Notes: a model not told the origin generated them from the sequence alone. Shown: positions 1 through 32,652, counted from the stretch's first letter. The stretch is 64,000 nucleotides of DNA from an uncultured Chloroflexia bacterium (GCA_963766735.1 CAVYBU010000008.1:1-64000); one strand, 5' to 3'. Program-made: numbers and translations.

Positions 1-20
1 AAATCCTCTCGCCCCGACCA
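1..20 (+). tRNA. 3' end of tRNA-Pro (partial; rest lies upstream of window); attL of the island array
   Basis: AAATCCTCTCGCCCCGACCA is the end of the T-loop, the T-stem 3' strand, acceptor strand CGCCCCG, discriminator A and CCA. G72/A73 is typical of tRNA-Pro. Anticodon not visible. Confidence 0.8.
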
Positions 21-1108
21 GATCGACCAATCGAGATTGATTGGTCCCCAGCCCCGAAGGCTGCATCCCATCCGTGGGCCTTCGCGCTGGCGGTCAGCGT
101 GAACGAGAAGTCGTTCGCCCCCATCACGTCGATCCTCTCGAACACGGCTTCCGCGATCGCGTGCCGCCCGGCGTCTGAGGTCTTCGCCCACAGGTTCGGC
201 AGCGACTCGAGGTACGCCCGCGCTTCCGCGGCGGTCGGGATGCGTGACGGGCGGACCACCGCTGCCTGTGCCTCAGCGTCGAGCCGCGCCATGGTGGCCT
301 CGAGCTTCCCCAGGTCGCGATCCTTCGCGAACCGCAGGGCCGCCTGGTCACGCTCTCTGGTGATGCGGGCTTGGGCCAGGACGTCGCCGTTGTCGGGCTC
401 CGGTCGCCTGGCGAGCGCCACGGTGCTGGCCTTGAGCGTCGACGAGACGGCCACGTGCTCGAACGCGAGGCCGATCGCGTCCTCGTACACCTCGACCTTG
501 TAGGACTCGCCCTTGACGCGGTGGTCGAGGTTCGTCTTCGCATTGCGCCGGTGGCGGCGCGGGGCAGCCGCCCGAAACGCCTCGCAGGCGTCCAGATGGC
601 GGTAGCGGCCGACGTGGCCGGTCAGGCGGCGGCCGCAGGCCGCGCAGGCCAGGAGCCCGGCGAGGCCGTACTGGCGGCGGTGGACCGAGCCGCGGTGCCT
701 CCGGCTGTAGCGGGCGCGCATCGCCTGGACGTGCTCCCAGGTGCCGACGTCGACGAGCGCGCCCAGGGCGGACGGCTCGCCGGTCCGGAGGCGGCCGGCG
801 TAGAAGGGGTTGGTCAGCACCTCCGCGACGTGCGTCGGCGCGAGGCCCGTGGCCTTCCCGACCTCCCGATCGGTTCGCCCGCCTGCCGCGAGCTCGTAGG
901 CGCGGCGGACGAGCACCATCGCCTCCTCGTCGACGGTGATGGTCCGGCCCTCCCGCACCGTGCCCAGGGGCGCTCGGTTGCCGCCGGGGACGCCGAGCCG
1001 CCGGCGCTTGGCGGCGTAGCCCTCCCGGATGCGGTGATGGACGAGAGCGATGAGCGGTGCCGGGTGGCCGGCCATGAACTTCGGCGAGCCGACCCAGTAG
1101 ATCGTCAC
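1..1108 (-). pseudogene. Large serine recombinase lacking the N-terminal catalytic domain, fused in frame to an amidase-like N-terminus; frame runs into the tRNA (stop predicted just outside window)
   Basis: Manual translation from GTG 1108: MTIYWVGSPKFMAGHPAPLIALVHH|RIREGYAAKRRR..GGNRAPLG..VLTNPFYAG (recombinase domain)..GLLACAACGRRL (Zn ribbon)..coiled coil..AKAHGWDAAF..SGRGERI. No resolvase catalytic-Ser domain. Absent from the ORF track because there is no stop in the window. Confidence 0.85.
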
Positions 1109-1332
1109 CTCACGCCCCGCCAGAGGGCCGAGGCCTCGAGCCCCAGGAGCGCGAGGATCGCGCCGAGCAGGGGCAGGAGGATGCCCGGGCTGATGTCGTA
1201 GTCGGGGACGGCGACGTCGAGGACGAGGAGGACGACCAGGACGATCGTGAGCGCCGCAGCCGCGCCGATCCGGGCCGAGGAGTAGACGTCGGCCCGGCGC
1301 TGGTCCGCGTCGTCACCCCGTTCATCGCCCAT
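1105..1332 (-). CDS. Small two-TM membrane protein, holin-like
   Basis: 75 aa with two hydrophobic stretches; GTGA overlap with the amidase-like start. Confidence 0.55.
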   Translation of the reverse strand: MGDERGDDADQRRADVYSSARIGAAAALTIVLVVLLVLDVAVPDYDISPGILLPLLGAILALLGLEASALWRGVR

Positions 1333-1447
1333 GCCGGCGCAGTCGGTCGATCCACGCATCGACGAGGAACGGCAGCACAAACCGGTCGAGGGCGCCGCCC
1401 ATGACCACGCCGGCGAGGAATGCCGCGACGAGCTCGATCCCGCTCAT
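1322..1447 (-). CDS. Small membrane peptide (41 aa), probable phage remnant
   Basis: MSGIELVAAFLAGVVMGGALDRFVLPFLVDAWIDRLRRHGR; overlaps both neighbours (ATGA at 1444-1447). Confidence 0.5.
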   Translation of the reverse strand: MSGIELVAAFLAGVVMGGALDRFVLPFLVDAWIDRLRRHGR

Positions 1448-2126
1448 AAGGTCGTCGCGGGGTTGACGGCGCGGACGTACCCGGTGGGGGGAACCGGGAG
1501 TCGACCTGGATCGGACCAGCGCGCCGTCATGCACCAAGGGTGCGGGCGGCGGGCCGCGGTTTCTAGTTGGCCGATTGGGCCATGTCGTCCGGGCTCGGGC
1601 AGGCGCGAGGAGAGGGTCCACAGGAGCTTCGCCGTCGTCACCGCTCCGGCCCCGGACCGCGCCGCTCGACCGCCGCAACCGCGCCTCGCTCGACAACAAC
1701 GAGACGGACGCAGGTGCGGCTCTCGGGATTGCACGTCCGCTCCGTGAAGGCCAACCTTCGACGCCACGAGCATCTCAGCCCTGGAATCGCCGTCGGCCGA
1801 GCAGCATCGAGAAGGAGTAGTTCTACTCCCGGCTGATGCCTCCGGCACGATCGCCGTGGTCGTCGACTCGATCGACGGGGCCCAGCTTCGACGCCCTTCC
1901 TTCGCGCGCCTCGGAGATCCCTGCCACGGTCAAGTCCGACTGAGCGAACCCTGCTGCATGCGCGCGGCACCATTCGGGGACGCCAGTTCAGCCAGTGCCG
2001 CCGGTCGTCGTCATGGTGGCGCGACGTCGTGGTCCGACCGGAGGGCGTTGTCCGGGCCATGCCGCCGGCGATCAGTACCGGCGCGGGCTGGGCCGTGCCC
2101 TTGGTGGCGCGCTACCCGAAGCGACG

Positions 2127-3020
2127 TCAGCCCGATCGGGCCGGGCGCGTCGAGCGGAGCTGTTCCACGAGCGCCCGGGCGTGCTCCTCGACCGCCGGCG
2201 CGAACGACGTGCCGAGAGCGGCGCACGTCCGCCGTGAGACCTCCCCGAAGAGGTCCATCGTCGTCGAGAGCGCGGCCCAGACCTCGTCTTCGTCATAGCG
2301 GGCGAACGACGTCCGCAGGCCCTCAAGGGACACCGGATCCGCCCATTCCTCGAAGAACCGGCCCCGGAACCACGGGTCGCGACCCGCGGCGGCCGCATCC
2401 CACTCCAGGAGCCGGCGCAGTAGCTCCTTCATGTGGACATCGCAGGCGAGCTTCGCCCACCACAGCTCGCCGCGGCGGAGATGCTTCGCCGTCCAGACGG
2501 CGTGGTACCAGAAGTCGGACGCAACCTGCTCGAAGGCGGCAGCATCCGGCAGGGTCGCCGCCTCGGCCGCGATCGTCGGAGTCGCGTCCATCAGCCGCGC
2601 GGCCACGCCGTCCTTGTCGAGCAGGACGCGGAACCCGCGACCGAGGGCGGCCTGAGCGGCCCGGGGATCGGAAGTGAGTAGGGTCTCGATCTCGTCGATG
2701 GCGAAGAACGCGAAGTCGACGTCCGCGCCACCGGCGAACAGCACGCGCCGCTCGGATCCGTGGCCGGCGGCGGTCGGCTCGAGGAACGTGATCCACGGGT
2801 CACCGATCGCTGCCACCCAGCCTGGGTCCTGCACGTAGCGGGAGGGCCCGTCGGTCAGGACGAGGACGTCGAGGTCCGCCCATTCGTCGGCGGGATGGTC
2901 CAGGCGCGCCCGCGACCCGATGACCAGGGCGGCGCGGATGTCGTCCTCCGCCGCCGCCCACGCAGCGAACCGCTCCGCGATGCGATCGTATTCCCGTGCG
3001 GCCCAGCCGGGTTCCGCCAT
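2127..3020 (-). CDS. Aminoglycoside 6-adenylyltransferase-like nucleotidyltransferase
   Basis: GSRAR..ADEWADLD motif; FWYHAVWTAKHLRRGELW; GRFFEEWAD. Confidence 0.8.
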   Translation of the reverse strand: MAEPGWAAREYDRIAERFAAWAAAEDDIRAALVIGSRARLDHPADEWADLDVLVLTDGPSRYVQDPGWVAAIGDPWITFLEPTAAGHGSERRVLFAGGADVDFAFFAIDEIETLLTSDPRAAQAALGRGFRVLLDKDGVAARLMDATPTIAAEAATLPDAAAFEQVASDFWYHAVWTAKHLRRGELWWAKLACDVHMKELLRRLLEWDAAAAGRDPWFRGRFFEEWADPVSLEGLRTSFARYDEDEVWAALSTTMDLFGEVSRRTCAALGTSFAPAVEEHARALVEQLRSTRPARSG

Positions 3021-3037
3021 CGGCAATCGCGTCCGTG

Positions 3038-5377: not shown

Positions 5378-5632
5378 CTACTCGTCCGCCTGCACTCCGC
5401 CCTCGGGCTCGGGCAGCCGCGGGGCCAGGATCCACACGAGCTGCGCCGTCGTCGTCACCCCCACCTTGGACCGGGCGTTCGCCAGGTGGTGCTTGACGGT
5501 CGAGTGCGACAGGCCGAGTCGATGGGCGGCCGCCTTCTCCGACCCGGCGACAAGGACCGCGGCCACGACGCCGACCTCGCGGTCCGTCGCGCGATTGGCG
5601 AATGCCCAAGTTCTCCGACCCGGTCGGGCCAC
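5378..5632 (-). CDS. LuxR/GerE-type small HTH protein, copy A (N-terminus replaced)
   Basis: ATDREVGVVAAVLVAGSEKAAAHRLGLSHSTVKHHLANARSKVGVTTTAQLVWIL. Confidence 0.75.
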   Translation of the reverse strand: MARPGRRTWAFANRATDREVGVVAAVLVAGSEKAAAHRLGLSHSTVKHHLANARSKVGVTTTAQLVWILAPRLPEPEGGVQADE

Positions 5633-5660
5633 CGGCTACCCGGTCAAGCATGAAGCCTGC

Positions 5661-5701
5661 GTGGCAAGCAAGTACTTGACAACTCGCCAAGTACTTGCCA
5701 C
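5661..5701 (+). promoter_or_regulatory. Promoter/operator with nested palindromes
   Basis: CAAGTACTTG at 5669-5678 and 5688-5697; outer IR GTGGCAAG/CTTGCCAC; TTGACA at 5676. Confidence 0.65.
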
Positions 5702-5737
5702 ACTGGCGCAATTACACCGCAGCAGAGGTTCAAGATC

Positions 5738-6214
5738 GTGACGAACGCAATGGATCCAGGTGAGGCCCGGGAGGCGCTCGCCGAGACGGAGCGGCGTAGA
5801 GAGCAGGTCATCGAAGGGACGCTCGTCCCGAGCTGGTACTGGTGGGTCGTGGGGATCCTGGCTGTGGGCCTGGGGGTCGGCGTGGACGCGCGCGACCCGG
5901 CGATCACCGGGGCCACCGCTGGCATCTTCGCGGTGGGTGTGTCGGTGCTCACCGTGTGGATCGCGTTCGGTGGCCGCCGCCACGTGAAGGTCCACGATCG
6001 GCTCCTTGGCGCACGCGGCGCCGGCCTCATCGTTGGCTTCGTGTGGCTCGTGGTTGGTGGCACCCTTGGGCTGGCGTTCGCCCTCCAGGCGGCGAGCGTT
6101 GGACCCGCGGGGACGCTCTCGACCATCGCCTGCGCGATCGCGCTCATCGTGGGAGGACCGGTGCTGATGCGGCGGCTGCGCGAGATGATGCGGCGTCAGA
6201 CGGAGGTGGGTTGA
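5738..6214 (+). CDS. Hypothetical four-TM membrane protein
   Basis: Hydrophobic ORF; TGATG-coupled to the downstream regulator. Confidence 0.75.
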   Translation: MTNAMDPGEAREALAETERRREQVIEGTLVPSWYWWVVGILAVGLGVGVDARDPAITGATAGIFAVGVSVLTVWIAFGGRRHVKVHDRLLGARGAGLIVGFVWLVVGGTLGLAFALQAASVGPAGTLSTIACAIALIVGGPVLMRRLREMMRRQTEVG

Positions 6215-6516
6215 TGGCCACGCCACGGTTCGACGAGCTGATCCATGCCCGGACCCGGCTCTCGATCGTCTCGCTGCTGGCCGCCTCGGACTGGGCTGAG
6301 TTCAGGTTCCTCCGCGAGTCCCTCGGCCTGTCCGACTCGGTCCTCTCGAAGCAGCTCACTCTGCTCGAGAAGGCCGGCTACGTGACGATCCGAAAGGCGT
6401 TCGTCGGCAAGCGACCCCGCACGTCGGTGAAGCTCAGTCAGGTCGGGCGTCTCGCGTTCGAGGGCCACGTCCTGATGCTCCAGGAGCTCGCCTCGCAGGG
6501 CGGGATCACGGGTTGA
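6214..6516 (+). CDS. Winged-HTH transcriptional regulator (ArsR/MarR-like)
   Basis: FDELIHARTRLSIVSLL..LGLSDSVLSKQLTLLEKAGYV..GKRPRT. Confidence 0.85.
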   Translation: MATPRFDELIHARTRLSIVSLLAASDWAEFRFLRESLGLSDSVLSKQLTLLEKAGYVTIRKAFVGKRPRTSVKLSQVGRLAFEGHVLMLQELASQGGITG

Positions 6517-6829
6517 AGTCCGGTGGGTCGGAACCACAATGACATGTGCGGGCCCCGACGTACCAGTCGCGGCGAGCCGACCGCTCGTCGTCCTTCCGGA
6601 CCGTCACCTCAGGCTCCGGCAGCCGCGGCGCCAGGATCCAGACGAGCTGCGCCGTCGTCGTCGCCCCCACCTTGGACCGGGCTTTCGCCAGGTGGTGCTT
6701 GACGGTCGAGTGCGACAGGCCGAGGCGGTGGGCGGCGGCCTTCTCCGACCCGGCGACCAGGACGGCGGCGACCACGCCGACCTCGCGGTCAGTGGCGCGT
6801 TCGACGTGGTGGCTCGACCGTCGCGTCAT
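6506..6829 (-). CDS. LuxR/GerE-type small HTH protein, copy B
   Basis: Same core as copy A; start overlaps the LSR-tail stop (ATGA 6826-6829). Confidence 0.8.
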   Translation of the reverse strand: MTRRSSHHVERATDREVGVVAAVLVAGSEKAAAHRLGLSHSTVKHHLAKARSKVGATTTAQLVWILAPRLPEPEVTVRKDDERSARRDWYVGARTCHCGSDPPDFNP

Positions 6830-7030
6830 GCGCTCCGCAGCCAGTCGAAGGGCTCCGGCGGCTCGGCGAGGCGCATCGTGACGGAGCTCGGAAGGTCGTT
6901 GGTGGCGGGGCTATCCCTCTCGCCCCGACCAGTCTTACGCACTTCCACCCTGAACTCGCCGGTCATTGCGGCTGCCCAGTCACGTGCCTCGGCTTCGACG
7001 CTCGGGTGGAGCCAGACCTCGTTCGGCCCA
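6826..7030 (-). pseudogene. LSR C-terminal remnant reading through att junction 1
   Basis: GPNEVWLHPSVEAEARDWAAAMTGEFRVEVRKTGRGER|DSPATNDL..FDWLRSA*, similar to the end of the 1-1108 LSR. Confidence 0.7.
6916..6932 (+). repeat. att core, copy of tRNA-Pro 3' end (junction 1)
   Basis: CCTCTCGCCCCGACCAG identical to 5-21. Confidence 0.9.
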
Positions 7031-7162
7031 CTCAAGCGTCCTCGCCATGGAGCCTGAGGAGTACGCGCGGCGGCTCCAGGCCACCCAGCTCCGCGCTGGA
7101 CAGGCCCCCCACCGGGCCGTCGGACCCATGCAACATGTCGCGGGACGGAGCGTCCTATCCCC

Positions 7163-8548
7163 GTGGACACCAGCATCCCGCCGCTCGAGCCGGTCGCGAC
7201 CGCCGCCCCCGCCGTCCGACTGGTGCCAGTCGTCGCACTGCTGGTCCTGCTCGCGCTCGGATCGACAACGATCGGCTGCGAGATGGTCCGTGGACCGCAG
7301 CAGGACGACCCATCCGTCGTGGTGCCGGTCTCCCCGGTCGCGGCGCCCTCGTCCACTCCAACGCCCAGCGCCACTCCCGGGGCCGTTCCGACGCCGTCTC
7401 CCGAAGTCGCCGGCGTGGACCTGACGTGGACCGCGGCGCCGGTGACGGCATCGATGAGGAACGCAGAGATGTTGGCCGTTGCGGTCGGGCACGACCTGTA
7501 CGTCGCCGTCGGGTGCACTGGGTTGGACAAGTCCAGCACGACGGGTGCGGCATGGACGTCCCCGGACGGCGAGATCTGGACGTCCGTCAACGTCAGGAAC
7601 GCGAAGCGCGCCTGCCTCTATGGTGTGATCTCCTCGCCGGACGGGTACCTCGCGTGGGGACACGACGCCGACGGCGCAGCATTCTGGCGCTCCGAGGACG
7701 GCGACCAGTGGTCCCGGGCGCGTTCCCTGGCGTCGTTCGCGAACCAGCACGTCGCCGATGTCGTCCGCTTCGGCGACCAGTACATCGCCTTCAGTGCATG
7801 GGGTCCCGAGGAACCTGAGCCAAAGCCCCGGATCTGGGCCTCGCCCAACGGGGTGCGCTGGTCCGACCAGCCCGACTCCATTGGTTGCGACGGCGGGCAG
7901 ACGAGCGACCCGGAAAGCCTCCCCTACATCCGCTCCGTGTTCGTGGACGGGATCGAGATCGTGGCCATCGGCGTCACCCTAACCGAGTACCACGGACCCG
8001 TGGCCGGTTCCGATCCGGCCACCGGGGGAGAGCTGCGGGTGATGGGAAGGTCCCAGGACGCACGGTGTTGGACCGTGACCTACACCCCAACAGACAGCTC
8101 GACGTGGCAGTCCGTCCTGACCCCGGACGGGATCGTCGGGGTCGGCCACCAGGCCACCAATGGGGCGACCGTCCCACTGATCACCGCGTCGACCTCCGTC
8201 GACGGCTCCGCCTGGTCGCCATCGACCTTCAGCCCGGGTGCCCTGGAGGGCACGCTCGAACGGCTCGCGTCGGGAGACCGTGGCCTGCTCGCGATCGGCC
8301 CGGTTCGCAGCGGCGAGCCCATCGAGGACCTCGGTGACGCCTACGAGCCCCCCGAAGACCTCCCCCCTCGCGGTACCGACCCCTCGGCATGGTGGTCCGC
8401 AGACGGACGTACGTGGCGGCGGACGGCGGCGCCTGACGCCCCCACCACGTTGTTCAGTGATCTGGTCGCGATCCCGGGCGGCTTCATGGCCGTCGGCCGC
8501 AAAACCACACCGTCCGGCTGGGTCGCCGAGGTCTGGATCGCGCGGTAG
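7163..8548 (+). CDS. Exported protein with repeated WxSxDGxxW (BNR/Asp-box-like) motifs
   Basis: Hydrophobic N-terminus, PT linker, motifs WTSPDG, WRSEDG, WASPNG, WWSADG. Confidence 0.75.
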   Translation: MDTSIPPLEPVATAAPAVRLVPVVALLVLLALGSTTIGCEMVRGPQQDDPSVVVPVSPVAAPSSTPTPSATPGAVPTPSPEVAGVDLTWTAAPVTASMRNAEMLAVAVGHDLYVAVGCTGLDKSSTTGAAWTSPDGEIWTSVNVRNAKRACLYGVISSPDGYLAWGHDADGAAFWRSEDGDQWSRARSLASFANQHVADVVRFGDQYIAFSAWGPEEPEPKPRIWASPNGVRWSDQPDSIGCDGGQTSDPESLPYIRSVFVDGIEIVAIGVTLTEYHGPVAGSDPATGGELRVMGRSQDARCWTVTYTPTDSSTWQSVLTPDGIVGVGHQATNGATVPLITASTSVDGSAWSPSTFSPGALEGTLERLASGDRGLLAIGPVRSGEPIEDLGDAYEPPEDLPPRGTDPSAWWSADGRTWRRTAAPDAPTTLFSDLVAIPGGFMAVGRKTTPSGWVAEVWIAR

Positions 8549-8683
8549 GTGGCGCGTCGCGCGTCGGGTGGCGCCGGGCATGGGCGCAAACCGTCAGAAG
8601 AGGCCGGCCAGGTCCGCGAACCGCGTCAGATCGACCAAGTCGGTCTGGCGTGCCGGGGCGATCCCAACAGCCCCACGACGTCA

Positions 8684-8941
8684 TCAAGCAGACCGCTGCT
8701 CGTCCGTCCGAGTCCAGCCCTCTGGCTCGGGCAGCCGCTCCGCCAGGATCCACACCAACTGCGCCGTCGTCGCGGCGCCGACCTTCGACTGCGCGTTCGC
8801 CAGGTGGTGCTTGACGGTCGAGTGCGACAGCCCGAGTCGGTGGGCGGCCGCCTTCTCCGACCCGGCAACGAGGACCGCGGCGACCACGCCGACCTCGCGG
8901 TCAGTGGCGCGTTCGACGTGGTGGCTCGACCGTCGCGTCAT
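8684..8941 (-). CDS. LuxR/GerE-type small HTH protein, copy C
   Basis: Near-identical to copy B; ATGA overlap at 8938-8941. Confidence 0.8.
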   Translation of the reverse strand: MTRRSSHHVERATDREVGVVAAVLVAGSEKAAAHRLGLSHSTVKHHLANAQSKVGAATTAQLVWILAERLPEPEGWTRTDEQRSA

Positions 8942-9130
8942 GCGCTCCGCAGCCAGTCGAAGGGCTCCGGTGGCTCTGCGAGCCGCATCGCGATGGGAAG
9001 GTCGTTGGTGGCGGGGCTATCCCTCTCGCCCCGACCAGTCCTACGCACTTCCACCCTGAACTCGCCGGTCATTGCGGCTGCCCAGCCGCGAGCCTCGGCT
9101 TCGACGCTCGGGTGAAGGCAGACCTCGCTC
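8938..9130 (-). pseudogene. LSR C-terminal remnant reading through att junction 2
   Basis: EVCLHPSVEAEARGWAAAMTGEFRVEVRRTGRGER|DSPATNDLPIAMRLAEPPEPFDWLRSA*. Confidence 0.7.
9022..9038 (+). repeat. att core, copy of tRNA-Pro 3' end (junction 2)
   Basis: CCTCTCGCCCCGACCAG identical to 5-21. Confidence 0.9.
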
Positions 9131-9149
9131 CAACCGAGTCGGGTTGCCC

Positions 9150-9298
9150 CAATCGGTCGACGCGCCCTTCGTCGAGTTGCACGACCGACAGAGCACCGCG
9201 GTGCAGGCGATGTCGAACGGCGCGCCGCCAGCGGCGAGCGGGGTGACGTGATCAACGGTCAGGTCGGCGGCCGGGTGAGCAGAGCGTTGGTAGCCCGG
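9150..9298 (-). pseudogene. Phage-type HNH endonuclease C-terminal fragment
   Basis: Manual translation: PGYQRSAHPAADLTVDHVTPLAAGGAPFDIACTAVLCRSCNSTKG. Confidence 0.7.
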
Positions 9299-9322
9299 AT
9301 CCGTGCGCGTCTTCCGCAGCGC

Positions 9323-9778
9323 TCAGCGTCCCGTCGGCTCGATCCGGAAGACCGGGTGGTCGGCCGGGTCGGGCAGCAGCTCCATGGAGCGCCGGCAGTT
9401 GCAGGTGATCGTGCTCGCGTAGGTCTTCACGACCGCATCGCGCTCCGCGTCTTGGAGTTCGACCACGCGGACGTGCTCGAGGACACGGCGCGAGCGCAGG
9501 TCCGCCTCACCGGCCGCGCGCAGGTTCCGCGCCCAGTGCGTCTCGCCGCGGGGCGAGACGAGGTAGCGGGTCCCGTTCCACTCGAAGGGCGGATCCATCG
9601 GCACCTTGAGGCGCTTCCCGCTGTTCCGCCCCCGCACGATGAGGACGGTCTTCCGGCCGAGGGCGACCGTGATCGGGTTCAAGATCTTGTTCAGGAATGC
9701 GCTGGGACGGACGTACGCCCTCGGACGGCTCTCGGCCGCGCCGCGGGGGTTGGTCTCCAAGTGCCCGTCGATGGCCAT
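9323..9778 (-). CDS. Deazaflavin(F420)-dependent nitroreductase-family oxidoreductase
   Basis: LIVRGRNSGK..YLVSPRGETHWARNLRAAG..DHPVFRI; RBS GGAGG. Confidence 0.8.
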   Translation of the reverse strand: MAIDGHLETNPRGAAESRPRAYVRPSAFLNKILNPITVALGRKTVLIVRGRNSGKRLKVPMDPPFEWNGTRYLVSPRGETHWARNLRAAGEADLRSRRVLEHVRVVELQDAERDAVVKTYASTITCNCRRSMELLPDPADHPVFRIEPTGR

Positions 9779-9993
9779 CGCCGGCCTCCTTCCCCTCGTC
9801 CGGGAGAGGCACCTGGGGACGCGCGGGCGCCCGGTTCGAGCCGACAGTACGCCGGCGCCCCGCGCTGGTCGAGGGCCATCCTTCCCCGTCTGCTCGGCCC
9901 GCTTGAACGGGCGCGCGGGGCGTCCGTGGCCGTTCAGTTCCAAAGCCTCTTGGCAGCGACCTCGCGCCCCTGCGACGGTCTTTGGCGTGCACG

Positions 9994-10066
9994 CGAGAGG
10001 CTCTGACGCGCGGCCCACGCCACGGCCGGCGGGACCGCGCCGAGCCACTGGCGAGACCGACCCACT
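9994..10066 (+). promoter_or_regulatory. c-di-GMP-II-like riboswitch, degenerate copy
   Basis: GAGGCTCTGACGCGCGG..GGGACCGCGCCGAGCCACTGGCGAGACCGACCC; 30 bp identical to the copy at 11150; closing stem eroded. Confidence 0.5.
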
Positions 10067-10092
10067 GTGAGCGTCCCCGGGAGGCAGACGCG

Positions 10093-11088: not shown

Positions 11089-11149
11089 CGGTCGAATGGG
11101 CTGTTGGCCTCTGGTCCGGAGTTTGTCCGGCGCCTAGGCTGTGCAGTTG

Positions 11150-11222
11150 GCGGGAGGCTCTGACGCGCGGTCCGAACACTGGCCGCCGGGACCGCGCCGA
11201 GCCACTGGCGAGACCGGCCCGC
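11150..11222 (+). promoter_or_regulatory. c-di-GMP-II-like riboswitch
   Basis: GCGGG/CCCGC closing stem, TGA..GAG kink-turn-like loop, GCGCGGTCC/GGACCGCGC stem, loop CGCC able to pseudoknot with GGCG in TGGCGAGACCG. Compared by eye with the class II consensus. Confidence 0.65.
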
Positions 11223-11249
11223 GCTGGGCGTCCTCGGGAGGTTCTCGCC

Positions 11250-12080: not shown

Positions 12081-12146
12081 GCGGATCACCGCCGCCTGAA
12101 GTCGACTTTCGGCGCGACCCGAAGCTGCAACGAGGAGGTACCCACC

Positions 12147-14170: not shown

Positions 14171-14529
14171 GCGGTCAACCGGGGCCGGTTCGGCGTCACT
14201 CAGCCCGGCGCGTCCGAGCGGGTTGGATCGAGCAGGGGATGTCGTGTTCATCCGGGAGGGCCCGTGCCTACGCGAGGGTATCGGGCCGGCGACGGCTCCA
14301 GGATGGTCCATTCCCCGTTAACCAGCAGGGTCGGCGAGGGCGCCCGTTCGGCGACGGCGACGAGTTCTCCCAGGATCGCCTCAAGTTCCGCGAGGCGATC
14401 CGCGCGGGCGGGGTCTTCGTGCACCATTCCAGTGTGTCGCTTTCGATCGCGCCACGCCTGCGGTCGGGCCCGGGCCACGCGAACACGGGGTCGAGCTTCG
14501 GCCGATCCATCCGTCTCGGCCGCGCCCGC

Positions 14530-14637
14530 CGGCCCGGGCAGCCGAGGGCCGAGGATCCACGAGTTGCGCGGTCGTCCCTGAGCCCACCTTCGACCGCGCG
14601 TTCGCCAGATGGTGCTTCACCGTCGAGTGCGACGGCA
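14530..14637 (-). pseudogene. LuxR/GerE-type HTH, copy D (truncated, 2-bp deletion)
   Basis: SHSTVKHHLANARSKVGSGTTAQLV, then a shifted ILGPRLPGP. Confidence 0.75.
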
Positions 14638-15491: not shown

Positions 15492-15755
15492 CTAGCGTCC
15501 GGCCGGGTCGTACTCGGTCACGAGGAATGCCGCAGTGCCCGCGGGCTCAGGCAGCCTCGGTGCCAGGATCCACACCAGCTGCGCGGTTGTGGTCGCGCCT
15601 ACCTTCGACCGCGCATTCGCCAGGTGGTGCTTGACGGTCGAGTGCGACAGCCCGAGCCAGTGTGCGGCCGCTTTCTCCGACCCGGCGACGAGGACCGCGG
15701 CCACGACGACCACCTCGCGGTCGGTGGCGCGTCCGGCGGGGCGGTGAGACGACCG
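15492..15755 (-). pseudogene. LuxR/GerE-type HTH, copy E (original start lost)
   Basis: RSSHRPAGRATDREVVVVAAVLVAGSEKAAAHWLGLSHSTVKHHLANARSKVG. Confidence 0.75.
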
Positions 15756-15759
15756 TCCC

Positions 15760-16151
15760 CCAATGATTGGCGTGACGCCTGGCGGCGGTTCGTCGCTCTC
15801 TGCGGGTTCGAGGTCACCTACTGCGAATCGATGGCGGATCAGGGCCTGGTCGAACCAATAACCGATACCGACGACTACGGCTGGCGCACGGGACCAGACC
15901 TGATCAGAGCGGCGGTAGAGATCGCCGCCGCCGCAGGCCCTTCAGACGCGATCGTTGTTACCGGTGCCGGTTGCCGCACTTCGCCAATCATCACAGAGGT
16001 CGAGCAGATCGCCGGGCGTCCCGTGATCGGCTCCGACACTGCCCTCTTCTGGTCACTGGCTCGAGCGGCCGGCCTGGGGCTCCGCCCGAACGCCCTGGGT
16101 GCTCTCACCCGCGGCGTGGCGTTGACCATCAGGAAGCTGAGCGATCGCTGA
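15760..16151 (+). pseudogene. Maleate isomerase / Asp-Glu racemase family, C-terminal fragment
   Basis: DAIVVTGAGCRT..IEVEQIAGRPVIGSDTALFW-like region; no N-terminal half. Confidence 0.6.
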
Positions 16152-16168
16152 GTTAGGGAGGGGCTACC

Positions 16169-16184
16169 CCTCTCGCCCCGACCA
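16169..16184 (+). repeat. att core, copy of tRNA-Pro 3' end (junction 3)
   Basis: CCTCTCGCCCCGACCA identical to 5-20; preceded by GGGGCTA as at junctions 1 and 2. Confidence 0.88.
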
Positions 16185-16290
16185 CTCCCACGCACTGCCA
16201 CCTTGAGCTCGCCGGTCATTGCGGCTGTCCAGCCGCGTGCCCAGGCTTCGACGCTCCGGTGGAGCCAGCCCTCGTTCACCGAGTCAGGTT
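16185..16290 (-). pseudogene. LSR C-terminal remnant at junction 3
   Basis: NEGWLHRSVEAWARGWTAAMTGELKVAVRGSGRGER. Confidence 0.7.
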
Positions 16291-16432
16291 GGTCTGTTCC
16301 GTGAACGGCACCACTGGTGGCAGAGCCTCGACACCCGGAATCTGCCGCGAGTCGGCACGCGCCGCATCGGGTCATACCCCCTCGCGCCCCGTCCAGTGAC
16401 CCCGACGAGCGGGCCCGCGATTCGATCTCGCG

Positions 16433-17675: not shown

Positions 17676-18278
17676 CTACCCCGATCCGGGAGCATGACCG
17701 TCGGCACCGGGCGTCCTGTCGCGGGTGATCGCATCGACCAGCACGTTCACCCCGTAGCGATACGCCGCGTCAACGTCGCCGCCGAGCCGGAAGGCACCGG
17801 CGAGCTCCATCCCGATGAAGCCGTTGGCGAAGGCCGTGATCAGTCGAGCGGCCTCCAGTGCCCGCTCCGGACCGACGAGCCGCTCGGCCAGGGTCAGGAC
17901 CGGGGCGGTGGCCCGCGCCGTGTCCTCGACCGATGCCCGCCAGTCGAGCGGCAGGTTCATGGACAGCAGCTCGAAGGCGCGGGGATTGGCCCAGGCGAAG
18001 GCGCGATAGGCCAGGGCCAGCTCGCGGAGCCCGGCTGCCGCATCGGGTTCGTGGCTCAGCGGTGCGAGCCGTTGACCGAGCTCGTCCAGGGTCGCGGTCG
18101 CGATCGCCGCGATCAGCGCGCCGCGACTCGGGAAGCGTTTGTAGAGCGAGGGCGCCCGGACGCCGACCCGTGCCGCCACCGCCTGCATCGTGACCGCGCC
18201 GAGGCCGCCAGCCTCGAGCAACTCTCGGCCGGCGGCGACGATCTCGGCGTTGGAGGTATGAGCGGGCGCGGGGCTCAC
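17676..18278 (-). CDS. TetR-family regulator
   Basis: EIVAAGRELLE..VTMQAVAARVGVRAPSLYKRF; GTGA overlap with the upstream gene. Confidence 0.9.
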   Translation of the reverse strand: MSPAPAHTSNAEIVAAGRELLEAGGLGAVTMQAVAARVGVRAPSLYKRFPSRGALIAAIATATLDELGQRLAPLSHEPDAAAGLRELALAYRAFAWANPRAFELLSMNLPLDWRASVEDTARATAPVLTLAERLVGPERALEAARLITAFANGFIGMELAGAFRLGGDVDAAYRYGVNVLVDAITRDRTPGADGHAPGSG

Positions 18279-18715
18279 CTCGCGCTCTTGCCGATGTGCC
18301 CAAGATGGGTGTCGCCGAACGCGGTGGGCAACTTGAGGCCGTAGCCGAGGGTCCGATCCATGCCGACGTGGGCGAGGAGCACTCCGGCGACGAGCAGGAC
18401 GGTCGGGGAGTCCAGCCACAACCCGATGACGAGCGTGCCGAAGCCGAGCGCCCAGTTGTGGACGAGGTTGTACGTGGCCGCACCGACGCGAGGGCCGGCC
18501 AGGTAGCCGAGCATCGAGAGGTCCGGCAGGAGCAGCAACGGGAGGACGAAGAGCCAGTTCCCGCCGCTGAGCCCGAACAGGACGAGCCCGGCACCGAACG
18601 CGGCGAGGCCCTCCAGGCGGAGCCACGAGCGGACCTCGCCTTCGACCATCCCCCTCCCGGTGGCCTGGCCGGCCCCGACGGTGACCGGGTCGAACGATGT
18701 GTGCAAAGCGGTCAT
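18275..18715 (-). CDS. DUF4260-like membrane protein
   Basis: WLRLEG..LLLPDLSMLGYL..YNLVH..HVGMDRTLGYGLK..THLG. Confidence 0.8.
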   Translation of the reverse strand: MTALHTSFDPVTVGAGQATGRGMVEGEVRSWLRLEGLAAFGAGLVLFGLSGGNWLFVLPLLLLPDLSMLGYLAGPRVGAATYNLVHNWALGFGTLVIGLWLDSPTVLLVAGVLLAHVGMDRTLGYGLKLPTAFGDTHLGHIGKSAR

Positions 18716-18747
18716 GGCGCTTGCTCCCTGCTGCTGGTGCTGTCCGC

Positions 18748-18785
18748 TGATGGCTACACTATATAGCCATCATGGATAATGTCAA
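18748..18785 (-). promoter_or_regulatory. Sigma70-like promoter overlapped by a probable TetR operator
   Basis: IR TGATGGCTA-N7-TAGCCATCA (18748-18772); minus-strand TTGACA-16 nt-TATAGT. Confidence 0.7.
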
Positions 18786-19044
18786 TAGCCTTTCTGCGCT
18801 TGTCACATCACATCCGCCGATGCGCACGATCGCCACCGGGCGGAACCGCCCTTTCGACCGGCAACGTGGATCTGTGGGATGCTCCCCGCGTTCGGGAGGG
18901 CCTCCGCATGGGGAGGGCTACTCCACAGGGTGGCGGCCGCAGGGCGTCCAGCCCGCTGAATCGAGGTTGCGCCTACCCTTGTCCATTCACCACCGAGCGG
19001 ATTGCCAAGACCTGGCGATGCGCCGTCGACCCCGGAGGTGGCAC

Positions 19045-19689: not shown

Positions 19690-20010
19690 CGTGGCCGATG
19701 CTGACCAGACCCGAGCAGGTCGGGAGTATTCGTGTTCTGGGATGCGAGCTGAAGGCAGAATCAACAAGAGGATCAGGATCGCAGTCGAGGACGCAAGAGG
19801 TTCAACGTTCTGGCTGACCCGATCCTCTGCCTCAGCGATGCTGGTAGACGTGATGCGGAAGCGGCCCCGCGGGGCCAGCATCACACGAGCTGCGCCGTCG
19901 CCACCGCCCCTACCCTGGTGCGCGTGTTCGCCAGACGCAAGCGTTGCCGGAGCGCCCATAATCGGGCTGGGTCGAGAGATCCGCGACCGTGAATCGATGA
20001 GCGTCCACCC

Positions 20011-30577: not shown

Positions 30578-31378
30578 ATGAACTTGGCCGACAAGGTTGT
30601 GGTCGTTACCGGAGCTGGCAGCGGCATGGGGCGCGAGGTCGCGCTCGAGCTGCTCAGGCGACGGGCACGGGTCGCCGCGGTGGACATCAACGAGACGACG
30701 CTGCAGGAGACTGCCACCCTGGCGCCAGGTGCCCCGGAGGCCATCGCGACGTTCGTCGTGAACATAACGGACCGGGCCGCAGTCGAGGCGCTGCCCCAGG
30801 CGGTGCTTGACCGCTTCGGCGCGGTGGACGGGATCATCAACTGCGCCGGGATCATCCAGCCGTTTGTGCGCCTGAACGACCTCGACTACGCGGCCATCGA
30901 TCGCGTCATGGACGTGAACTTCCGCGGCACGCTGTACATGACGAAGACGTTCCTGCCGTGGCTCCTCAAGCGGCACGAGGCGCACATCGTCAACGTCTCG
31001 AGCATGGGCGGCTTCATGCCGGTGCCTGGCCAGACCATCTACGGAGCGTCCAAGGCCGCCGTCAAGCTGATGACCGAGGGGCTCCACTCGGAGCTCAGGG
31101 ACACACCCGTGCGGGTCAGCGTCGTGTTCCCGGGGGCCGTCGCGACGAACATCACGGCGAACTCCGGCGTGGAGACGCCGGCGGCCGCCCCAGGGGCCAA
31201 GGAGTACAAGACCCTCGCCGCGGACAAGGCGGCCCGGATCATCCTGGACGGCATGGCCAAGAACCACTACCGCATCCTCGTCGGCAGCGACGCGAAGATG
31301 CTCGACCGGCTCTACCGCCTGCACCCGCGCCGCGCCGCAGGCTTCCTCGCGAACCAGATGAAGGATCTCCTGGGGTAG
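30578..31378 (+). CDS. SDR-family oxidoreductase
   Basis: TGAGSGMG, NCAG, YGASK. Confidence 0.92.
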   Translation: MNLADKVVVVTGAGSGMGREVALELLRRRARVAAVDINETTLQETATLAPGAPEAIATFVVNITDRAAVEALPQAVLDRFGAVDGIINCAGIIQPFVRLNDLDYAAIDRVMDVNFRGTLYMTKTFLPWLLKRHEAHIVNVSSMGGFMPVPGQTIYGASKAAVKLMTEGLHSELRDTPVRVSVVFPGAVATNITANSGVETPAAAPGAKEYKTLAADKAARIILDGMAKNHYRILVGSDAKMLDRLYRLHPRRAAGFLANQMKDLLG

Positions 31379-31695
31379 TCGGGCTCCGCAATCCTGGACG
31401 CGGGGCGTCTGGGGCAGGGGGCGCGGTCATCGGAGCTGGGGCGCATTCTTCGATGCCGCGCCTCGGGACTCTTGCCGAGCGCGGCACGCTCCCTGCCCTC
31501 GCCCCGCGATCCCGTTTACCGAGATCGACGGCGCATTCGCCAGGGACGCCAATCCCGAGGCGTGAGCGCGCCGGCCCCGGCCACCCGTGCTCGAAATGCG
31601 GCCAGCGGGGTACGATCACACCCCCAGGACGATCATCGGCATGCGGGCAGCGGCTCCATCGGAGCGCCCCCGTAGCCGCCAGGAGGCTTCTCCAC

Positions 31696-32652
31696 GTGTC
31701 TGCCAATTCAGGTCATCGCGGTCGCGCCACGGGCGTCTTCGCGCTCGCGATCGCTGCAGCCCTGACGCTCGGGGCGTGCGATGGAACGGTGCCCCTGCCT
31801 TCGATCGAGCTCCCTTCGATCGAGCTCCCCTCGATCGAGATCCCGACGAGGCCTCCCAAGCCGACCGCCGAACCAACCGCCGAGCCGGAGCCCACGGCCG
31901 AGCCGGAGCCGACGGCCGAGCCGGAGCCGACCGCCGAGCCGGAGCCCACAGCGGAGCCAACGGCCGAGCCGACGGCCGAGCCGGAGCCGACCCCGGAACC
32001 CACGGCGAAACCGACGGCAGAGCCGACGCCAGCGCCCACAGCGGAGCCCACGGCGAAACCGACGGCCAAGCCCACGGCGGAGCCGACGCCAGAGCCTACG
32101 GCCGAGCCGACCGCCGAGCCCACCCTGGAGCCGACGCCAGAGCCCACAGCGGAGCCGACCGCCGAGCCGACCCCGACCGCGAGTCCCGCGCCGGGCTCGG
32201 GTGCGGGCGACACCGGCGACGACGGGCCCAGCCTCCTGCTGCTTGTCCTCCTCGCGGTGGTCGGCGGCGGACTCGCTGTCTACGCATGGATGCGCTCCCG
32301 CGGAGGGACCCCGCCGACCGACCTCCCGCCGACCGACCTCCCGCCGACCGGTGCCCCGCCTGCCGGTCAGGCGCCGCCCCCGCCCCCACCGCCCGGCGCT
32401 GGCCCCCTGGCGCCGCCGCCCCCGCCCGGTGCCGGGACGGAAACGCAGGCGATCACGCCGGTGCCCGCGACGTCAGCAGGGTTGCCGACAGCGGCCGGCG
32501 TGGCCGCTGCAGCCGGGGCTCCCGGGACGGGCGCCGCGCCCGGTGAGTCAGCCGAGACCATCGACCGAGGCGATCCCGGGGATCCCGACGGGCTGGGTTC
32601 GCTGATCCCGCCGGCAAACGATCCCGCTCCCACGGAGCCACCGCCCGCCTGA
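31696..32652 (+). CDS. PT(A/P)E-repeat membrane-anchored protein
   Basis: AGGAGG RBS, LGAC lipobox, long PTAEP(E) repeat stalk, TM helix, Pro-rich tail. Confidence 0.7.
   Translation: MSANSGHRGRATGVFALAIAAALTLGACDGTVPLPSIELPSIELPSIEIPTRPPKPTAEPTAEPEPTAEPEPTAEPEPTAEPEPTAEPTAEPTAEPEPTPEPTAKPTAEPTPAPTAEPTAKPTAKPTAEPTPEPTAEPTAEPTLEPTPEPTAEPTAEPTPTASPAPGSGAGDTGDDGPSLLLLVLLAVVGGGLAVYAWMRSRGGTPPTDLPPTDLPPTGAPPAGQAPPPPPPPGAGPLAPPPPPGAGTETQAITPVPATSAGLPTAAGVAAAAGAPGTGAAPGESAETIDRGDPGDPDGLGSLIPPANDPAPTEPPPA

Follow-up and report, generated by a model that had tools for sequence, protein, structure and literature searches.

The window analyzed here is the first 64 kb of a 384-kb contig (C8) from the assembly of an uncultured Chloroflexia bacterium (3.6 Mb in 35 contigs, 70% GC). 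Its left end carries remnants of integrative elements that encode a large serine recombinase (LSR) and a helix-turn-helix (HTH) regulator. In our overall reading, to which we give a probability of about 0.75, the attachment core lies inside the LSR reading frame, integration at a tRNA-Pro gene swaps the C-terminal tail of the enzyme and separates the HTH gene from it, and the window carries a relic tandem array of such elements.

In the sequences of the family, when the LSR side is joined to the tRNA gene (attL, the integrated state), the frame ends one codon after the core at a TGA from the antisense T-loop. When the LSR side is joined to the other arm, as in attP of an excised circle or at a tandem junction, the frame runs on for 15-43 residues. 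In most cases, the continued frame then stops on the ATGA or GTGA start of the first gene across the site, usually a LuxR/GerE-type HTH gene.

Attachment core and junctions in the window

Antisense to the final 16-17 nt of the tRNA, the core encodes G-R-G-E-R, invariant residues near the LSR end. Relatives have ATT TGA AAC CTC C.. after GRGER, a sequence that represents the T-loop and T-stem read in antisense; the short recombinase therefore takes its last codon and stop from the tRNA. In the window, the C-terminus of the minus-strand open reading frame (ORF) at 2..1108 is ..SISIGRSGRGERI (window positions 1-19), after which four more bases precede the end of the assembly. The 17-mer of this core, CTGGTCGGGGCGAGAGG, was also found at three junctions, named J1 (6916-6932), J2 (9022-9038), and J3 (16169-16185). 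The same 17-mer ends the tRNA-Pro(cgg) gene at C3:380099-380175 of this genome, where it adjoins another antisense-read LSR C-terminal fragment. Further core copies were located on contigs C3, C9/C24, C19, and C26; neither these nor J3 had been listed in the first-pass annotation. ARAGORN predicted 0 tRNA genes in the window, and Rfam reported only two riboswitches there. Thus, the statement of the first-pass annotation that the attL frame ends ..SGRGERI in the antisense tRNA held for the C-terminus and for the identity of the core as a tRNA-Pro(cgg) 3' end, whereas the tRNA gene itself is not in the window. The features of the array are as follows, all on the minus strand.

2..1108: remnant of the type A LSR, equal to residues 151-492 of full-length relatives, with C-terminus ..GRSGRGERI at the contig edge
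5..21: attL-side core, CTGGTCGGGGCGAGAGG on the minus strand, antisense of the tRNA-Pro(CGG) 3' end; 4 nt follow, then the contig end
5378..5632: orphan HTH paralogue with no tail or core upstream
6506-7030: whole of J1, comprising an LSR C-terminal fragment, 17-nt core, tail, and HTH gene
6506..6829: J1 HTH gene, 107 aa, LuxR/GerE type (Pfam GerE 24.6 bits, cutoff 23.5; alignment A3)
6826..6915: J1 tail, 29 codons DSPATNDLPSSVTMRLAEPPEPFDWLRSA plus stop, in the same frame as GRGER
6916..6932: J1 core, 17-mer
6933..7030: J1 LSR C-terminal fragment of another subfamily, ..VWLHPSVEAEARDWAAAMTGEFRVEVRKT (repeat family D5)
8684..8941: J2 HTH gene, 85 aa (Pfam GerE 28.6 bits)
8938..9021: J2 tail, 27 codons plus stop, with ATGA at 8938-8941
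9022..9138: J2 core (9022-9038) and LSR C-terminal fragment
15492..15755: orphan HTH paralogue
16109..16291: J3, with its core (16169-16185) between an LSR C-terminal fragment and a broken SLTQ-family tail, GSPSLTQRSLSFLMVNATPR.. (compare P0079 and L038)

At J1, the frame runs from ..RVEVRKTGRGER directly into DSPATNDLPSSVTMRLAEPPEPFDWLRSA, and its stop codon (6826-6828) overlaps the HTH ATG (6827-6829). The J2 frame likewise passes from ..RVEVRRTGRGER into DSPATNDLPIAMRLAEPPEPFDWLRSA and stops in the ATGA at 8938-8941. The coordinates 6826-6829 and 8938-8941 therefore bear out the earlier observation that both frames cross the core and that their stops overlap the HTH start. Upstream of the core, both junctions carry some 35-45 codons from the LSR C-terminus of another subfamily (..HPSVEAEAR.WAAAMTGEFRVEVR.TGRGER). 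Its homology extends over ~35-70 codons, equal to residues 454-519 (J1) and 453-519 (J2) of P0001, a long-form relative. The HTH gene is missing after the J3 tail.

When aligned, the J1 and J2 tails differ by a single 6-nt indel and by synonymous substitutions at the third positions of three RLAEPP codons (CGC/CGG, GCC/GCA, CCG/CCA), as the first-pass annotation had described. Its suggestion that these changes indicate protein-level selection did not stand on the window alone, where a short upstream ORF fits them equally well; a coding signal in the LSR frame was found in the relatives analyzed below. An imperfect inverted repeat (TGGTCGGGGC .. GCCCCGCCACCA) can also be read around the core on the tail-bearing side (window 6905-6935 and 9011-9041, minus strand). 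An inverted repeat centred near the core/tail boundary would be the expected appearance of a dimer-binding attP. A promoter and terminator scan of 6300-9400 returned 0 and 0 sites.

The system of the window is dead. P0001 residues 151-492 matched C8:1033-5 at 91% identity (tblastn), an in-frame stop lies directly upstream of position 1108, and homology search found no LSR N-terminal part elsewhere in the genome; the ORF at 2..1108 is therefore a truncated pseudogene. Residues 1-150, which hold the catalytic domain, are gone from this sole LSR body, and its match to Pfam Recombinase reached only E 0.004. J1, J2, and J3 retain ~35-70 LSR C-terminal codons. J1 and J2 were ruled out as attP of a living element and are joints between decayed neighbours of a tandem array. 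Junctions of this type, as the product of tandem insertion, imply recombination between the attP of an arriving element and an attL or attR already in place. The least decayed copy is the one at the contig start, where the core continues into 4 nt of the tRNA T-loop; this suggests insertion of new elements beside the tRNA. The first ~16-20 kb of the window is thus an array of small integrative elements, decayed and arranged in tandem, which appears to lie next to a tRNA-Pro(CGG) gene. The elements are members of a diverged LSR family that is common in this order of Chloroflexota.

The HTH copies of the window scored 24.6-29.2 bits against PF00196 (GerE; cutoff 23.5), and the GerE domain is thus present. 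Their NCBIfam matches were confined to the C-terminal effector domain of response regulators; the protein comprises 81-107 aa and lacks both a receiver and a ligand domain. The window contains four or more HTH copies that appear intact, with more elsewhere, and zero intact recombinases of the family were counted in the genome. Additional HTH fragments lie near 1591-1662, 14471-14632, and 19867-19934, and more copies on C9, C19, and C26. Another genome, G095, has four junctions and no LSR match. The orphan HTH regulators may be kept for a reason.

Recombinase forms and selection on the tail in relatives

A search with the window remnant yielded 395 database relatives at E <= 0.001. Full-length relatives comprise 493-554 aa and scored 43-47 bits with Pfam Resolvase (PF00239; cutoff 23.3), so that the catalytic domain is present; Pfam Recombinase and Zn_ribbon_recom remained below their cutoffs (E 0.001-0.008). 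The PHROG integrase family phrog_95 matched the LSR at E 1.4e-38 over residues 13-456. The top PDB matches of the AlphaFold2 (AF2) model of P0001 were full-length serine integrase-DNA complexes (9dxh_A, 2e-13; Bxb1 9iu2_A, 2e-11; PhiC31 9rah_B, 1e-9). The recombinase domain, zinc-ribbon domain, and coiled-coil that follow the catalytic domain in an LSR are accordingly taken to be present, as judged on relatives rather than on the window copy. The LSR was present in 112/301 genomes of the order (Chloroflexota, Limnocylindrales-like metagenome-assembled genomes, MAGs), namely in 111/258 of family f1 and 0/42 of family f2. Named records with the LSR are Chloroflexota MAGs, many labelled Candidatus Limnocylindrales. 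Viral contigs contained no P0001 relative, and a tblastn search with P0001 (E <= 1e-5) found no match in 72,556 records of plasmids and 50,697 of phages.

Two C-terminal forms were distinguished among 72 full-length proteins (at least 485 aa). The short form (30 proteins) has one residue after GRGER, and the long form (42 proteins) has 15-43 more residues. Among the long proteins, 28 end in [RQLG][ST]A (hereafter the xSA landmark), 6 in another ..A, and 8 otherwise; the 28 xSA tails comprise 23-31 residues and are all in phase with the LSR. The metagenome set of 80 loci gave 66 LSR-anchored ends, with 14 loci lacking a core. Of these ends, 24 were short and 2 ran off the contig; among the long ones, the stop fell on the HTH start in 15, another NTGA was present in 14, and 11 showed no overlap. 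All GRGERI ends in the metagenome loci adjoin a tRNA T-arm. In 80 species-representative loci, 32 short ends, 33 long ends, 3 off the contig, and 17 loci without an LSR-core were counted. From these sequences, the crossover site lies inside the coding sequence, and integrated and free forms encode different C-termini.

The usual downstream gene encodes a LuxR/GerE-type HTH protein of ~81 aa. Where recognisable, the gene after the tail encodes this LuxR-type HTH, one of three other small HTH types, or a ParB_N protein. Of 137 complete tails in relatives, 63 end in ATGA, 33 in GTGA, and 5 in TTGA, against a chance level of 52%. The stop-start coupling is general and not HTH-specific.

Selection on the frame was analyzed in a junction set of 153 junction-type cores among the matches listed (111 places and 30 automatic loci; 41 further matches lay outside the set). 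The core plus tail-start pattern, which picks tails beginning like DSP, occurred in 101/301 genomes, and a reversed control pattern matched once. As a frame-blind landmark, GGAGCGC[AG]TGAC (Shine-Dalgarno sequence and start of the downstream gene) was used with at most 2 mismatches. Among the matches listed, 84 junctions carried this landmark, and the start codon lay at offset 2 of the GRGER frame in 74 of them. In these 74, frame and start-codon coupling are kept. The in-frame distances were 92 (8 junctions), 95 (40), 98 (1), 101 (5), 104 (4), 107 (5), 110 (8), and 116 (3), and the 10 out-of-frame junctions showed distances of 72, 93, 94, 96, 97, and 111. Besides the mode, 34 surviving copies were in frame versus 10 out of frame, which is a strong excess.

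In 40 unique tails of modal length, the non-consensus counts at codon positions 1/2/3 were 81/77/188. The ratio of nonsynonymous to synonymous polymorphism (pN/pS) of these tails was 0.34 in the LSR frame versus 1.58 and 1.74 in the shifted frames, and the HTH gene as a positive control gave 0.16. At the level of sequence, the tail is a conserved part of the recombinase reading frame under purifying selection. In the AF2 model of P0001, tail residues 500-506 (LSITMRL) form a beta-strand, the block 501-510 has a mean pLDDT of 87, and the GRGER segment is below 50. Complex prediction for LSR residues 265-494 and the HTH encoded by that element gave no answer (score 0.01).

An intact element of 5.46 kb was found in genome G171 (locus L172). 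Its flank is followed by the core at 1477, the tail HSPATNDLPITMRLAEPPEPHELDRSA with its stop, ATGA, and the HTH gene at 1572-1817. Three unassigned ORFs and a sigma factor of the extracytoplasmic function (ECF) group on the other strand come next, and then the LSR at 5471-6955 (494 aa, ending GRGERI and stop) and tRNA-Pro(cgg) at c[6934,7010]. In the integrated state, the HTH gene thus lies ~5.5 kb from the LSR, at the opposite end of the element. The attL and attR sites share 17 nt, TTGGTCGGGGCGAGAGG, the sole footprint of a putative attP x attB recombination at short sites with a 2-bp crossover. Because both sites share this block, a crossover anywhere in it would restore a continuous LSR-tail-HTH reading, as an earlier proposal to reconstruct attP from intact relatives had anticipated; the circle itself was not seen. 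No sequence had to be joined artificially for such a reading, since natural LSR-tail-HTH junctions exist (P0001, L176, L190, L194, and others). The intact element was present in 20/24 listed sequencing runs. Within it, at 3106-5441 of L172 (G171:C2, minus strand), the ECF sigma factor (E about 1e-12 to 1e-14) is followed by a 512-aa ORF without a family match, possibly its anti-sigma partner.

The metagenome contig L182 represents a tandem case. A partial LSR leads into core, tail, and HTH; after another 5.4 kb there is an intact LSR, which ends in the tRNA. In L189, the LSR C-terminal end lies at the contig start and LSR residues 1-407 at the contig end, which fits either a circle or a tandem. 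The sites on contigs C19 and C26 of the window genome may be genuine attR sites or else junctions in which 10 nt of the LSR are retained. A hypothetical empty site, composed of the tRNA end and the C19/C26 flank, was not found in 31 genus genomes.

Weighing of the overall reading and its alternatives

Several results weigh against the overall reading. In a chance control of 19,679 random frames of the genome, 75% were open for at least 27 codons, and the first stops were 42% ATGA or GTGA and 52% [AGT]TGA. Open frames and such stops are thus common by chance, and the open 27-29-codon tail with ATGA in the window is not significant. The raw share of long ends with NTGA (53/73) was only modestly above chance, and in view of the control this frequency was no longer used as an argument. 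Since J1 and J2 are homologous copies, they do not count as independent cases, and the argument must therefore rest on relatives. Even there, the length classes gave a weak excess, with 7 in-frame classes besides the modal 95 versus 6 out of frame. A second tail family (DSPSLTQRSLSFLMVNATPRE.., n=8) showed a weaker signal (pN/pS 0.55 versus 0.87 and 1.22 in shifted frames), and the AF2 model of P0016, from another tail family, had no confident structure at residues 481-524 (pLDDT 29-39).

The state of the elements gave further points of this kind. In the species-representative genomes, the 7 pattern-counted HTH-coupled long forms all follow LSR ORFs of <470 aa; the intact coupled case L272 escaped the pattern and was tallied under 'other'. 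The chromosomal long forms can all be tandem junctions. Among the 80 metagenome loci, 0 showed a terminal overlap of 15-200 nt as expected of a circular contig. Logan contigs of four runs carrying the G171 element, compared with L172, contained no attP or empty-site joint, although contigs cannot show absence; they bridge attR and end in the tRNA. Thus, the earlier claim that the circular form makes a long integrase coupled to the HTH and the integrated form a short, uncoupled one was matched by the architecture of the family sequences, and the circle was not observed.

The alternative that survives best, though we consider it unlikely, is that the tail does not belong to the recombinase. It would instead be a leader ORF of 16 codons (MRLAEPPEP..RSA and stop) translationally coupled to the HTH gene, together with the recombinase-binding P arm of attP, and the read-through would be an unselected by-product of the core that both share. 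An in-frame ATG (..ITMRLAEPP..) occurs in the LSR frame of nearly all DSPAT-type tails, and the coding signal is strongest downstream of this Met (pN/pS 0.32 and 0.31). The segment from the core to the conserved Met, which overlaps the presumed recombinase-binding arm, showed a weak signal (pN/pS 0.47, counts 23/30/36). The synonymous RLAEPP changes of the window lie downstream of the ATG and would fit such an ORF equally well; this segment signal and these changes also belong to the points against the overall reading. Tails are intact at junctions without an LSR upstream (e.g., L040, L047, and L052), and the HTH gene's GGAG Shine-Dalgarno sequence and ATG dictate the terminal xSA. However, the Met is absent in 13/28 xSA tails, with Leu, Ile, or Val in its place; judged from the protein sequences, a non-ATG start may be used there. 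Tails of 23-31 residues are all in phase with the LSR. Length variants upstream of the Met are whole-codon (-1, +1, +2; spacing 10, 12, and 13 versus the usual 11), in a count that covered in-frame tails only. The confident strand of P0001 spans LSITMRL. A leader ORF may still be the route of HTH translation in the integrated state.

It is quite improbable that no selected architecture exists and that J1 and J2 are insertion and deletion debris at a tRNA hotspot, where the same core phase gives automatic fusion and the long proteins of databases are gene-caller artefacts, produced by read-through in GC-rich DNA. Every LSR part in the window is a fragment, the chance frequencies of open frames and ATGA or GTGA stops are high, the circular form was not found, and 10/84 landmark junctions are out of frame. 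These facts are outweighed by the third-position bias and the pN/pS of 0.34 versus 1.6-1.7 in shifted frames, and by a tail motif ([ST]..[DE][LIV]..[ILV]R[LV]) that persists to LSRs of ~55% identity. In addition, 74/84 junctions have their stop at the genuine start of a conserved gene, and four HTH types and ParB_N, which are different genes, are coupled alike.

An origin of the repeats and the contig-edge LSR as metagenome-bin assembly artefacts, with chimeric joins at the repeated core, is hardly credible: although C8 and C24 begin at repeats and C26 at an HTH-repeat fragment, and C24 duplicates C9 and C26 parts of C19 and C8, the three junctions lie 7-16 kb inside a 384-kb contig, junction types recur in 101/301 other genomes including the single-contig assemblies G095 and G123, and the shared core is just 17-26 nt.

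Possible regulatory meaning, precedents, and neighbouring features

Under the overall reading, integration would strip the tail from the enzyme and move the HTH gene to the far end, away from the LSR transcript and ribosomes. Recombinase form and regulator dosage would in this way report the state of the element. A functional switch, in which the two enzyme forms differ and HTH expression depends on the integration state, would be a reasonable expectation from this arrangement; that form or dosage has a regulatory consequence is a tentative proposal. A more specific combination is doubtful. In it, the tail would be a working part of the recombinase, a strand at the C-terminus by which the DNA-binding end is completed. 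Loss of the tail and uncoupling of the HTH would set directionality or lock the element in, replacing or working alongside a classical recombination directionality factor (RDF), and the many orphan tail-HTH modules of genomes without any intact recombinase would serve as immunity or decoy modules against incoming relatives. The HTH itself was also considered as a candidate RDF of the LSR, a protein that would bind the integrase and reverse its direction.

The closest precedents are Mx8 IntP/IntX and BPs. Part of the published account of Mx8 (PMC6070905) describes attP inside the integrase gene, which acquires a new 3' end on integration and then encodes an altered enzyme; the likeness is in an attP within the integrase coding sequence and an enzyme changed on integration. 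The Mx8 enzyme is a tyrosine recombinase, whereas this family consists of serine recombinases, exchanges 15-43 residues for one, and loses a part that ends in a stop-start overlap with a regulator. Mx8 Int loses a long C-terminal segment. For BPs-type phages, part of the corresponding account (PMC3694055) places attP inside the repressor gene, where integration removes a C-terminal degradation tag and acts as a genetic switch; here the likeness is in an attP inside a gene and in viral and prophage protein forms that differ at the C-terminus. In BPs, the split gene encodes the repressor and the integrase is a tyrosine recombinase, whereas in the LSR family the integrase gene is split and the HTH gene itself is whole. 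The tyrosine integrase common to the Mx8 and BPs switches is thus replaced by a serine recombinase.

Archaeal integrases of the SSV1 type are tyrosine recombinases whose gene is partitioned by its own attP into two large parts on tRNA integration, whereas only a short tail is removed in the LSR family. Textbook serine integrases have attP outside the int ORF, take their direction from a separate RDF, and mostly target protein-coding genes. The family shares with Bxb1, PhiC31, and A118 the domain order and fold, short att sites, and a small attL/attR identity block, and differs from them in its target, a tRNA 3' end, and in a core within the LSR's own last codons. In the literature search, no serine integrase came up whose own gene contains attP, although the supplementary tables of large LSR surveys may hold cases.

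Serine integrases are valued as one-way genome-engineering tools, with direction thought to be set by a separate RDF. This would be a large natural family in which recombination itself rewrites the C-terminus of the enzyme and disconnects a co-translated regulator. If true, it would constitute a self-contained state sensor of the kind documented for a tyrosine integrase (Mx8) and a phage repressor (BPs). The family also provides a serine integrase that is aimed at the 3' end of a tRNA and takes its stop codon from the T-loop read in antisense. Because fossil arrays are readable, attP could be inferred without a free element. For uncultured Limnocylindria-type Chloroflexota without genetic tools, a practical place to start would be an intact member whose att sites are defined.

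Other features were noted around the junctions and the LSR remnant. Upstream of the J2 LSR fragment (9140-9260, minus strand), another frame resembles, as read by eye, the end of an HNH nuclease (..DHVTPLAAGG..LCRSCNSTKG..), and this stretch recurs after the tRNA on C3 at about 380270-380400. A ~450-nt segment at window 1029-1481, encoding a small hydrophobic ORF, is repeated at C3:384471-384928 and C9:23820-24305 with 86-90% identity. The point of N-terminal loss of the LSR remnant coincides with this repeat, and a rearrangement that recurred is thus suggested rather than decay at random. At a distance of about 1 kb from the remnant, an Adenyl_transf ORF (PF04439, 'streptomycin adenylyltransferase', E 1.5e-38) lies at 2127-3026 (minus strand). 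It may be cargo of the element, whose host is an environmental Chloroflexota MAG.

Two c-di-GMP-II-GAG riboswitch aptamers were found on the plus strand at 9987-10070 and 11144-11228 (bit scores 59.6 and 73.9; gathering score 40), situated within the array of element relics. Each lies upstream of a paralogous ORF starting MR.RTTL.L.AGG (repeat families D6 and D7; a third ORF start is at 12134). Contigs C8 and C24 begin at array repeats, C26 begins at the HTH-repeat fragment, and a further contig break lies at the end of C19. C24:1-1180 duplicates C9:25700-26900, and C26 duplicates parts of C19 and C8, with C26:84-1196 equal to window 17704-18817 reversed at 99.3% identity. These breaks and duplicates suggest strain variants of the array within the bin. 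Repeat family D1 consists of 16 overlapping copies with a 12-nt periodicity at 31843-32180 (plus strand), inside the ORF at 30958-32652.

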